The notes below the pieces were generated by a model. That model ran no database searches. It saw only the letters and a program-made list of their open reading frames with translations, and was not told where the DNA came from. A stretch of DNA of 64,000 nt from a virus, in the IMG/VR virus record IMGVR_UViG_3300037258_000282, positions 64,001-128,000 of that record. One strand, given 5' to 3'. A program made the position numbers and the translations under genes. Numbering within the stretch: the first letter of the stretch is position 1; every line of letters starts with the position of its first letter. Positions 60,908 to 64,000 of the stretch are shown one piece after another.

Positions 60908-61348
60908 ATGCAGGGGCGTTTTAAGTTAAAGCACCCAGAAAAATATAAGGGAAATGCTTCCAACGTAGTGTATCGAAGCAGTTGGGAGCTGAAAATTATG
61001 ATTCATCTCGATCATGATACCACTGTATCGAAGTGGAGCTCTGAGGAAAATGTAATAGCATACAGGTCTCCAGTAGACGGTCGACTTCACAGGTACTTTG
61101 TGGACTTTATGGTTGAAAGAGTAGACTCTTCTGGAAATAGAACTACTACTCTGATAGAGGTCAAACCTGAGAAAGAGACCGTACCTCCTAAAGTTACTAA
61201 GAACAAAAAATCAAGACACTTCATAACTGAGTCTATGACGTATGCCAAAAACTTAGCGAAGTGGGAGGCGGCTAAGAAGTACTGTGAGAGTCGTGGGTGG
61301 AAGTTCGTGATACTAACTGAGCGACATCTGTTCGGAAAGAAGAGCTAG
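60908..61348 (+). CDS. 4: Head completion nuclease gp4
   Basis: PEKYKG, YRSSWE, WSSEE, HRYFVDF, IEVKP, N.AKWEAA, LTERHL. Confidence 0.93.
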   Translation: MQGRFKLKHPEKYKGNASNVVYRSSWELKIMIHLDHDTTVSKWSSEENVIAYRSPVDGRLHRYFVDFMVERVDSSGNRTTTLIEVKPEKETVPPKVTKNKKSRHFITESMTYAKNLAKWEAAKKYCESRGWKFVILTERHLFGKKS

Positions 61349-61947
61349 TGGCAGATAATTTTCTTACGACTCTAAAGAAGAGAGCCAGGGGATTAGTACG
61401 AGTAGGCACCAAGAAGGCCTCTGACTGGTTCAGAGAGGCCGTAAAGGCGCTGTCTAAACCATCTGCCAGGCAGCTGATCGACCAGGCTGGTCCCTTTAAG
61501 AGATTCGAGACTCTATCTAAGAACTCGATAGGAAAGATGTATCTCTTTCAATATGATCCCAAACTTAAAGAAGTGTTACCATACTACGACATATATCCCC
61601 TGATATTTCCGATACAATACTACTCTGATGGCTTCCTAGGAATAAACTTACACTACCTTCCGATAACTCTTCGCATGAAGCTCATGAGAGAGCTCTACAC
61701 TATCGCTAACAACAAGAAGTTCGATAAGACTACAAAACTGCAGATCTCATACTCACTGCTGAATGGAGCGGCTAGGTTCTCCTACTTTAGACCGTGCGTC
61801 AAGAGATATCTGTTCAGCCACATCAGGTCGCCGTTCTTGTATATATCACCGGATGAGTGGGATATAGTACTATCTCTGCCGATCCAGAAGTTCAAGAAGG
61901 CCACGGCCGAGAAGGTATGGGAAGACTCGAGGAGGGCCGTTCAGTAA
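61348..61947 (+). CDS. 2: DNA end protector gp2
   Basis: GKMYLFQYDPK, LPYYD..PL, GINLHYL, PCVKRYL, VWEDSR. Confidence 0.93.
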   Translation: MADNFLTTLKKRARGLVRVGTKKASDWFREAVKALSKPSARQLIDQAGPFKRFETLSKNSIGKMYLFQYDPKLKEVLPYYDIYPLIFPIQYYSDGFLGINLHYLPITLRMKLMRELYTIANNKKFDKTTKLQISYSLLNGAARFSYFRPCVKRYLFSHIRSPFLYISPDEWDIVLSLPIQKFKKATAEKVWEDSRRAVQ

Positions 61948-62624
61948 TGCCGTTCAACGTAAGCACCTTCAAGCAGAACATATCTACATATGGCATCATT
62001 CAAGATAACAAGTATGACTTCAGCGTCAATTTTGGCTTCTCGGGTCCAGTTAGCACCGGATCCGCAGGCCTGCCATCGGCCGCGATCTCCTCGTCAAAGA
62101 TTCAGACGTCGGTTGGTCCGGTAACTATGTCCACTCTCGCGGCAGACCTATCAAATAGGTCCATTCTCACCAGTCTTCCATCGTTCATTCTCAGACCAAC
62201 GAACGTCAATAGATACGGTCTAGGACTGCTTGAGAGCATGCCGTTCACGGGAATGTACTCTGATCTTCCCGTTACATTTCTCGCTGACTCAAAGGGCGGC
62301 ATCTACAACTTCTTCTATAACTGGATGAGCTTTATATTCACCGGAAATGGACAGGCCGCTCCAGATGGAGTGTCGAATCAGATCACCCGCGGCAACTCAT
62401 ATTATACTATGGAGTACAAGTCGAACTATGCCGCGACCATAACTATTAAGGTCTACGACAACGCGGGAAACGTGTCTATGACTCACAACTTCTACAACGC
62501 CTTTCCGATATCTCTCAATGAAACTTCAGTTAGCTGGGAATCTACCAACAAGCTCATGAAATTATCTGTTACATTTTCCTATAAAGAATGGAAGATGACT
62601 AATTCAACACTAACATCACAGTGA
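61947..62624 (+). CDS. 54: Baseplate tail tube initiator gp54-like
   Basis: MPFNVSTFK, FYNWM, YKSNY, NAFPISL, VTFSYKEW; start ATG 61947. Confidence 0.8.
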   Translation: MPFNVSTFKQNISTYGIIQDNKYDFSVNFGFSGPVSTGSAGLPSAAISSSKIQTSVGPVTMSTLAADLSNRSILTSLPSFILRPTNVNRYGLGLLESMPFTGMYSDLPVTFLADSKGGIYNFFYNWMSFIFTGNGQAAPDGVSNQITRGNSYYTMEYKSNYAATITIKVYDNAGNVSMTHNFYNAFPISLNETSVSWESTNKLMKLSVTFSYKEWKMTNSTLTSQ

Positions 62625-62631
62625 GGAACTA

Positions 62632-63357
62632 TTGCTACCCAAGATAAACTTTCCTACTATCCTACTGACTATTCCATCGCGGGGAAATAAGGAAAAAAAG
62701 TTCTCGTTCAGACCTATGCTAGTCAGAGAAGAGAAGATCCTACTCATGGCCAAGGAGTCCGAGAGCGATACTGATATTCTTACTGCAGTGAGGCAGGTAG
62801 TTAATAACTGCGCTCTGGATCCTAATTTCGACGTCGATGATCTCGCTCTATTCGAGTTAGACTGGCTGTTCATTAGACTCAGAGCGTTCTCATCTAGTGA
62901 CACTATAGAAGTCTCTTATCGAGATAATCAAGAAAATAAAGTCTATGACTTTAAGATTAAGCTCGACGAAGTTCAGATAAAGTTCCCCGATGGCGCGCAA
63001 GCCGACGTGATAGAGCTCACGAAGACCGCGGGAATTACTCTAAGATATCCATCTGCAAAGTTATATTCAGACTCTAAGTTTCTGAACTCTCTAGATGGTG
63101 AGAAGTCCTTCTTTGACCTCGCGGCGCGATGCATCAAGAGCGTATACGATGGCGACTCAGTCATGTCTGCCTCAGATTTTTCACATGAAGAACTTATGGA
63201 GTTTATAGAGTCTATAGATATAAAGAGCTATAACAAGATACGAGAGTACCTCACTTTGGTACCTTCACTATACCATAGGCTCTCTTATGTTGACTCTAGT
63301 GGACAAGAAAAAGAGATCATCTTGTCTTCGTTATCAGATTTTTTTACGCTGCGCTGA
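62632..63357 (+). CDS. 26: Baseplate hub assembly protein gp26
   Basis: LPKI, FRPMLVREEKILLMA, LFIRLRA.S, LRYP, LSDFF. Confidence 0.9.
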   Translation: MLPKINFPTILLTIPSRGNKEKKFSFRPMLVREEKILLMAKESESDTDILTAVRQVVNNCALDPNFDVDDLALFELDWLFIRLRAFSSSDTIEVSYRDNQENKVYDFKIKLDEVQIKFPDGAQADVIELTKTAGITLRYPSAKLYSDSKFLNSLDGEKSFFDLAARCIKSVYDGDSVMSASDFSHEELMEFIESIDIKSYNKIREYLTLVPSLYHRLSYVDSSGQEKEIILSSLSDFFTLR

Positions 63358-63527
63358 GCTCGGCGTCACTAGAGAGCTATTATAAGACTTTATTCTCTCT
63401 GATGCAGCACCACAAGTGGGGTTCAATCGGAGAGATCGAGAGTATGATATTATTTGAAAGGGATCTTCTAGTAGATATGCTGATACAGTTTATCAAAGAA
63501 AAAGAAAGAGAGTTAGGGGAGCAATAG
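63339..63527 (+). CDS. 51: gp51-like hub assembly catalyst, in the -1 frame of gp26; start uncertain
   Basis: Not in track. Manual: SLESYYKTLFSLMQHHKWGSIGEIESMILFERDLLVDMLIQFIKEKERELGEQ*. Confidence 0.8.
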   Translation, partial: FFYAALSSASLESYYKTLFSLMQHHKWGSIGEIESMILFERDLLVDMLIQFIKEKERELGEQ

Positions 63528-64000
63528 TTGGCGTCACGACGTCCAAAAAGTATACTAAGTTCTATATTTCCAGAACTCACCGAAACCTCTAAGGAGGTGG
63601 CGCGCGAGGGGTTTGGCCATACTGTAGCTTCAGCGATCTTTCCATCTATCAGGTTCCATCGCTCACCCACACGCGCCACAGCGGCTCGCGAAAAGCCAAA
63701 AAAAGTCGTAGATAGAACCAGACAGACCGACGATGAGTTCAAGACGAATATCACGCTAGTAAAGCTAGCCCTAGACTCTATCTCTGCCTCTCAGAGAGAG
63801 GGAGCATTTATACTCAAGCAGGAGTTGAATCTAACAAAGAGGACTAACGCGCTCCTGGAATCTATACTAGCGAAGGGTGGTATTTCATCTAGTGGTTCTG
63901 GTTCTGGTGGAGGAGGCGGTCTACTTAGCGATCTAGGCACAGTAGCGGCTGGTATAGCCGGAGGTCTTGGGACAGTTAAAGGCGGACTAAAGTACGTCTC
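63528..64000 (+). CDS. Probable tape-measure/gp29-like protein, 5' part (runs off window)
   Basis: TTG with GGGGAG RBS, open to the end, GGGGGLLSDLG..; follows gp26/gp51. Confidence 0.5.
   Translation, partial: MASRRPKSILSSIFPELTETSKEVAREGFGHTVASAIFPSIRFHRSPTRATAAREKPKKVVDRTRQTDDEFKTNITLVKLALDSISASQREGAFILKQELNLTKRTNALLESILAKGGISSSGSGSGGGGGLLSDLGTVAAGIAGGLGTVKGGLKYV

Follow-up and report, generated by a model that had tools for sequence, protein, structure and literature searches.

Our analysis indicates that the gp26-family gene of an uncultured T4-like phage with a 153-kb genome very probably gives rise to two products through recoding at a run of T residues close to its 3' end, and that this recoding is probably a -1 frameshift of the ribosome; both conclusions are drawn from sequence comparison. 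The window, meaning the whole stretch of 64,000 nucleotides that was analyzed, corresponds to bases 64001-128000 of a 152,589-bp IMG/VR virus record (IMGVR_UViG_3300037258_000282), which is estimated to be 91% complete. The features of the locus, all on the plus strand, are the following:

60908-61348, +: gp4-like head completion gene
61348-61947, +: gp2-like DNA end protector
61947-62624, +: tail-tube-like gene (gp48/gp54/gp19 class), directly 5' of the gp26 gene
62632-63357, +: gp26-family gene, 0-frame short product of 241 aa, TTG start (PF12322, phrog_150)
63339-63345, +: slippery heptamer T_TTT_TTT, the proposed -1 frameshift site, with X_XXY_YYZ phase in the gp26 frame
63345-63527, +: gp51-like C-terminal extension in the -1 frame, 60 codons plus TAG (phrog_634)
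63346-63366, +: local stem-loop directly 3' of the heptamer, containing the hairpin of the earlier note, MFE -9.1 kcal/mol
63355-63357, +: 0-frame stop TGA, three codons 3' of the heptamer
63528-64000, +: 5' part of the next gene (907 aa in full), which extends beyond the window and continues as L087:1029-3752

In the mechanism that we propose, most ribosomes would terminate at the TGA at 63355-57 and release the 241-aa short form, while a minority would slip by -1 with tRNA-Phe in both the P and the A sites on U_UUU_UUU (63339-45). The slipped ribosomes would then read the -1 frame to the TAG at 63525-27 and produce a long form of 298 aa (238 + 60), which would carry a gp51-like, predicted helical domain of about 60 residues and whose fusion would have the junction peptide ..LSDFFYAALSSASLESYYK. 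The gp26-family gene would thus be a tail (tape-measure/hub) assembly chaperone gene with a short and a long form. We infer the ribosomal rather than transcriptional nature of the slip, as well as its efficiency and the chaperone function.

A base-by-base check of the junction gave the end of the gp26 ORF as GAT (63337) TTT TTT ACG CTG CGC TGA (63355-57), with T_TTT_TTT at 63339-45, exactly as it had been read in the earlier note. The -1 frame has a TAG at 63297-99, is open from 63300 to 63524 and closes with the TAG at 63525-27; its first ATG, GTG or TTG after the upstream TAG is the ATG at 63402, which bears out the further claim that the gp51-like sequence lies in this frame with none of these codons before that position. 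Regarding family assignment, the gp26 product of the window matches PF12322 (3.7e-46, its residues 15-238 covering positions 10-218 of the 219 in the profile) and phrog_150 (1.2e-51), whereas for the -1 ORF the match is phrog_634 (8e-21), the gp51 family named 'baseplate hub assembly catalyst'. The product of the tube-like gene located upstream matches phrog_45, 'tail tube' (7.7e-29), and also PF23849 and PF06841. This gene was listed with a GTG start at 61857, which produces an overlap of 91 nt with gp2; the ATG at 61947, with an overlap of a single base with the gp2 stop, is the likely start and agrees better with the family match, which begins at residue 29.

To examine the conservation of this arrangement, we used a comparative set of 85 loci made up of the window, four cultured phages and 80 IMG/VR contigs. 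The 80 IMG/VR loci were retrieved by means of a gp26 alignment whose search patterns came from the N-terminal and middle parts of gp26, far from the junction, in order to avoid circularity. A search of IMG/VR for the locus with a single protein retrieved nothing, whereas the alignment query succeeded; a DNA-level search of the phage collection gave no match. With the gp51-like peptide as query, tblastn identified 331 phage records, which include cyanomyoviruses, the Pelagibacter phage Mosig and Methylophilales phages. The window falls into a distinct, uncultured clade, and its gp26 is 30-51% identical to anything that we retrieved.

The gp51 frame is -1 relative to gp26 in all 85 loci, so the frame relation never varies among these relatives, a variation that the earlier note had named as an argument against its proposal. 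In the same 85 loci, T_TTT_TTY is found in phase at the C-terminal FF of gp26, and the -1 frame is open from the heptamer onward; the slippery heptamer that had been expected at the terminal FF codons, with gp51 in the -1 frame, is therefore conserved. In 14 loci of the set the heptamer is directly preceded by a -1-frame stop, which means that in these cases the ORF begins exactly at the slip site, and the 0-frame stop is located 0-3 codons 3' of the heptamer in 82 of the 85. For example, in S-CAM4, S-BM3, Mosig and S-PM2, gp26 ends in ..FF followed by 1-8 codons, the heptamer is T_TTT_TTC, and gp51 lies in the -1 frame. The same signal and frame are present in KVP40, where gp26 ends ..EDFFV and the gene order is gp4, tube, gp26, short gp51 and a large protein.

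Among the 81-84 distinct relatives, the TTTTTT has zero entropy (0 bits) and the seventh position is T or C, compared with 1-1.9 bits in the flanks. It is important to note that although the sequences of the set are kin, and counts such as 85/85 overstate their independence, the flanking synonymous sites are saturated at those 1-1.9 bits. Upstream of the heptamer, each 15-nt block has its most variable codon phase at the third position of the 0 frame, while each block from the heptamer to +150 has it at the third position of the -1 frame; the switch takes place exactly at the heptamer. The residues directly after the heptamer are conserved as FF-x-x-x-L-S-H-x-x-L-x-N-Y-Y, even where no start codon precedes them. 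This pattern of substitutions is that of two reading frames under purifying selection. Counting both strands, the window contains 21 copies of TTTTTTY, compared with an expectation of 9.6 derived from dinucleotide shuffling (none of 100 shuffles gave as many as 21); hence, T/A homopolymers are generally enriched in this genome. The mere presence of the heptamer is not beyond chance, but chance falls far short of explaining that all 85 loci have it, invariant, at the same position and in the same phase.

Codon usage at the T-run points in the same direction. The first Phe codon of the junction FF is TTT in 84 of 84 loci, whereas elsewhere in the same gp26 genes Phe is encoded by TTT in 70% of cases, and the other FF dipeptides of these genes have TTC as their first codon in 57 of 81 instances. 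The codon that precedes the FF of the heptamer is GAT, AGT, AAT, TCT or GCT, which encode four amino acids (D, S, N and A) and always end in T; the Ser at this position is drawn from two codon families, both T-ending. Given the TTT in 84/84 against 70%, the T-ending preceding codon, and the loss of the run in phages with two separate genes (described below), the codon evidence indicates that the heptamer is conserved beyond the requirement of the encoded amino acids.

Special attention was given to elements that might stimulate the slip. The hairpin that the earlier note had seen downstream of the heptamer does exist, as part of the stem at 63346-63366 (-9.1 kcal/mol), but as a conserved stimulator it was rejected, since it is not common to the relatives and the RNAalifold consensus was empty for +7 to +47, +67 and +97, whether all loci, the T7 clade or the T6C clade were used; the stem-loop of the window is probably not a dedicated stimulator. 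RNAalifold also gave no consensus structure for the upstream span from -40 to 0 of all loci, and the mean MFE z-score of the comparative loci was -1.06. In the T_TTT_TTC (cyanophage-type) clade, 32 of 35 Glu codons at position -5 are GAG, compared with 29% elsewhere in the same genes, and the GAGG that results, an SD-like sequence, lies some 10 nt 5' of the heptamer. The signal was observed in L039-L084 and L001-L004, approximately 10-15 nt upstream of the heptamer. This SD-like GAGG probably stimulates the slip in the cyanophage clade, as judged from the codon bias; upstream of the heptamer of the window's T_TTT_TTT clade, it is absent. The only conserved stimulator candidate seen in the window clade is the nearby 0-frame stop, which in the window lies three codons on. 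Many phage G/GT sites have no known stimulators.

A different way to account for the locus is that no fusion is made and that a small gp51 is translated freely, either from the ATG at 63402 (41 aa) or from the CTG at 63354, through independent or coupled initiation. GenBank does annotate short gp51 genes, of 44-57 aa, in records such as S-PM2, KVP40 and Mosig; an ATG, GTG or TTG is found at most 30 nt after the heptamer in 40 of 84 relatives (not in the window), and some of the relatives present stop/start overlaps, such as the TAATG of KVP40. However, the start is conserved in neither position nor kind. Upstream of the heptamer, no locus of the comparative set has an ATG, GTG or TTG in the -1 frame, and the first downstream start is found anywhere from +9 to +102. 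For 30 of the 84 loci it lies at +45 or beyond, and three (L015, L016 and L036) have none before +93 to +102; these three keep the conserved sequence all the same. The first start of the window, ATG 63402, would drop 21 conserved residues, and the constraint on the -1 frame starts at the heptamer rather than at any start codon. The column at +15, which corresponds to the CTG at 63354, contains CTG in 28 loci, ATG in 22, CTC in 12, CTA in 9 and CTT in 8, as is characteristic of a Leu/Met residue and not of a start. The two alternative starts that the earlier note had put forward, CTG 63354 and ATG 63402, were thus rejected as conserved starts, neither position being kept as such across the loci. 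Free initiation would explain neither the invariant TTTTTT, nor the T-ending codon before it, nor the loss of the T-run in two-gene phages, and in T4 gp51 the extension works as the C-terminus of a gp26-like domain. We consider it quite improbable that this reading accounts for the locus, although a free short gp51 may be made in those relatives that have a nearby start codon (about half of them, the window not included).

Recoding at the T-run could also take place during transcription: RNA polymerase would add one U on the T7 run in some of the mRNAs, and the resulting fusion of 298 aa would be identical to the one expected from a ribosomal -1 frameshift. The signal is indeed made up of a single repeated base, as T7 in the window and as T8-9 in a few relatives (for example L025, L043, L072 and L079), and in the window clade both a conserved RNA structure and an SD-like stimulator were looked for and not found. 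Nevertheless, 45 of 84 relatives have T6 followed by C, which is short for slippage by bacterial RNA polymerase, a process that usually needs runs of 8-9 or more. In addition, T7 runs are common elsewhere in the window, the T-run is always in the exact X_XXY_YYZ phase, and the GAGG that synonymous codon choice enforces 10 nt upstream in the T6C clade acts on ribosomes and not on the polymerase. We rate the ribosomal mechanism as the more likely one and polymerase slippage as unlikely, since the phase is fixed, T6C forms exist and an SD-like element accompanies them. Genomic sequencing or assembly errors must be considered as well, given that homopolymer runs are error-prone and the window comes from a metagenome-derived virus record; the true gene would then be a single in-frame ORF, or else a decaying pseudogene. 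This explanation is barely credible, since the same out-of-frame arrangement is present in 85 of 85 loci, including the finished genomes of the cultured phages S-PM2, S-CAM4, S-BM3, Mosig and KVP40, and both frames are under purifying selection; conservation effectively refutes error or decay.

Having weighed these explanations, we retain the ribosomal frameshift within a single gene as the preferred reading, and the organization of T4 is informative in this respect. Genes 26 and 51 of T4 lie on opposite strands, minus and plus respectively. The two genes are thus separate, as the earlier note had stated, and their divergent transcription makes a frameshift fusion impossible there. T4 gp51 (249 aa) has a PF12322 domain at residues 1-201 (3.9e-52) followed by a C-terminal extension, and its residues 147-246 match phrog_634 at 1.2e-23. 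When -1 fusions were assembled conceptually for the window and eleven relatives, they could be aligned with T4 gp51 from one end to the other, the extension of the window being colinear with residues ~200-249. T4 gp26 (208 aa) ends ..EFFELL where the short form of the window ends ..DFFTLR. A direct BLASTP of T4 gp51 against the -1 ORF of the window was not significant, and the link consists of the shared profile and the colinear alignment. Since T4 gp51 is a gp26-family domain plus an extension, T4 gp26 would correspond to the short form and gp51 to the long form, encoded by paralogous genes. By comparison, one PF12322 gene was found in the 152.6-kb genome of the window and one in KVP40.

The six two-gene Straboviridae that we inspected (T4, RB49, 44RR, RB16, Octan and Pm5461) do not conserve the FF, the residues at this place being FF, FL, FV, LL or AL, and the T-run at the end of gp26 is absent in all six; in T4 itself the FF codons are TTC TTT, and there is no slippery site. 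In RB16, 51 and 26 are in tandem on one strand, as opposed to the divergent genes of T4. Because the FF decays in every two-gene phage examined, it may be the recoding signal, and not the function of the protein, that maintains the invariant C-terminal FF in the gp26 of one-gene phages. There may also be two types of signal, U_UUU_UUC with GAGG in the cyanophages and KVP40, and, in the uncultured clade, U_UUU_UUU lacking an SD but followed by a stop after three codons. Finally, T4-like phages may have started from the one-gene frameshift state, from which duplication would have produced the two-gene state of T4. Taken jointly, these three proposals, possibly unpublished, are put forward tentatively, and we would not be surprised to see them fail as a set.

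Previous reports have come close to this arrangement from several sides. Sullivan et al. 2010 described cyanophage and vibriophage gp51 proteins without about 200 N-terminal residues and left the cause unexplained, and Atkins et al. 2016 (PMC5009743) considered the G-T frameshift conserved in long-tailed phages 'except T4'. According to works that cite Vladimirov, Gautam & Davidson 2022 (Virology 566:9-15, PMID 34826709), namely PMC10885494 and PMC12846349, T4 gp26/gp51 are called tail assembly chaperones there; according to PMC10885494, some T4-like phages use a short gene and a long fusion gene with no frameshifting, and the same study is also cited for poly-T frameshift signals in T4-like chaperone genes. 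As far as these citations go, the core finding of a chaperone frameshift in T4-like phages appears to have been published in 2022, so the idea presented as new in the earlier note appears to have been anticipated. The decay of FF in two-gene phages, the two signal contexts and the synonymous-site statistics may go beyond that study. In the inspected records of S-PM2, S-CAM4, S-BM3, Mosig and KVP40, no joined (ribosomal slippage) CDS is annotated; the short gp51 is unannotated in S-CAM4 and S-BM3, and in the others it is started at a different internal Met (44-57 aa).

A role of these proteins in tail assembly is suggested by structural modeling and by gene order. The AF2 model of the window gp26 has a pLDDT of 92.6, and in VIA-align comparisons of its residues 1-97 the structures at ranks 1-3 were 3fgx (Z 8.5), 2ob9 (Z 6.8) and 3klu (Z 6.7), which are middling scores; 2ob9 is the tail assembly chaperone (TAC) of HK97 and 3klu is YqbN of B. 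subtilis. The lactococcal p2 ORF12 (3d8l) gave a Z of 3.1, and Foldseek against the PDB with the gp26 model found nothing significant (2ob9 at a probability of 0.25). These comparisons are suggestive of a tail-assembly-chaperone-like fold in the predicted N-domain. The gp51-like extension was modeled by AF2 as four helices, with a pLDDT of 72.9. Leiman et al. 2010 list gp26 and gp51 as hub assembly chaperones in their table, and state in the text that gp51 is required and not in the final particle, and that recent genetics indicates that gp26 may be a hub component. In the GenBank record of Acinetobacter phage Octan, gp26 and gp51 are both named 'tape measure protein assembly chaperone'.

At the locus, the order is tube-like gene, gp26, gp51 and a large downstream gene. 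The earlier note had located the junction before the tape-measure gene; a large gene (907 aa) does follow, but it is only a candidate for that role, and a profile search of the genome for the T4 gp29 family gave no match. In the 907-aa protein, the N-terminal region is rich in Gly and an internal domain (residues 456-593) is GH19/endolysin-like; there are also weak matches to tail-lysin and hub/hub-lysozyme families; 'tape measure' was matched only at E 0.025 (PHROG, Pfam). Its position and size make it a plausible tape measure; it is also a tail-lysin candidate, and it may combine the two, with the lysin forming part of a tape measure. Further along the genome and beyond the window, a 101-aa ORF (L087:5241-5546, genome C1:131741-132046) matches GTA_holin_3TM PF11351 at 3e-05 as well as a PHROG holin; it is located 3' of an unassigned 496-aa ORF and 5' of the opposite-strand gp32 and gp59 genes.

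These results have consequences for the annotation of T4-like phages. The 'short gp51' of cyanomyoviruses, KVP40-like vibriophages and Pelagibacter/Methylophilales myophages is most likely the C-terminal part of a gp26-gp51 product, and the same correction covers many uncultured T4-like phages. T4, which appears to encode both forms separately, would then no longer stand as the exception ('except T4') to a tail-chaperone frameshift that is general elsewhere. The existence of one gene plus recoding in some phages and of two paralogous genes in others provides a natural experiment on why a fixed short-to-long ratio matters. The value of the present study lies in the confirmation on a new uncultured clade and in the detail that it adds.

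Comparison with known systems places the window among several related arrangements. The -1 frameshift of E. coli dnaX, a textbook case also with regard to the spacing compared here, takes place on A_AAA_AAG with an upstream SD-like stimulator. The cyanophage clade resembles it in having an SD-like GAGG about 10 nt 5' that is kept by synonymous codon choice, while the window clade differs from it in lacking both the SD-like element and a conserved downstream hairpin. The short 'gp51' of the cyanomyoviruses, Mosig and KVP40 presents an identical arrangement and slip site, which there is T_TTT_TTC, whereas the window has T_TTT_TTT, a 0-frame tail of three codons (TLR) and no upstream GAGG. T4 gp26/gp51 belong to the same families (PF12322, phrog_150 and phrog_634) and share the end of the short form and a colinear long form; the difference is that T4 has two paralogous, divergent genes with no slippery site, and the window has one gene and an overlapping -1 ORF. 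In lambda, gpG and gpGT are reportedly produced by a -1 frameshift that is conserved among tail assembly chaperone genes (Levin 1993; Xu, Hendrix & Duda 2004). As in lambda, the gene of the window follows a tube-like gene and precedes a very large one, and its N-domain has a predicted TAC-like fold, but there is no sequence homology with gpG, the window protein is larger (241 aa, two domains), and the heptamer is U_UUU_UUU instead of G_GGA_AAG. The equivalence to G/GT that the earlier note had suggested thus gains support from the gp26-family domain plus extension of T4 gp51, from the predicted TAC-like fold and from the gene order, and the short and long products of the window probably correspond to lambda gpG/gpGT and to T4 gp26/gp51.
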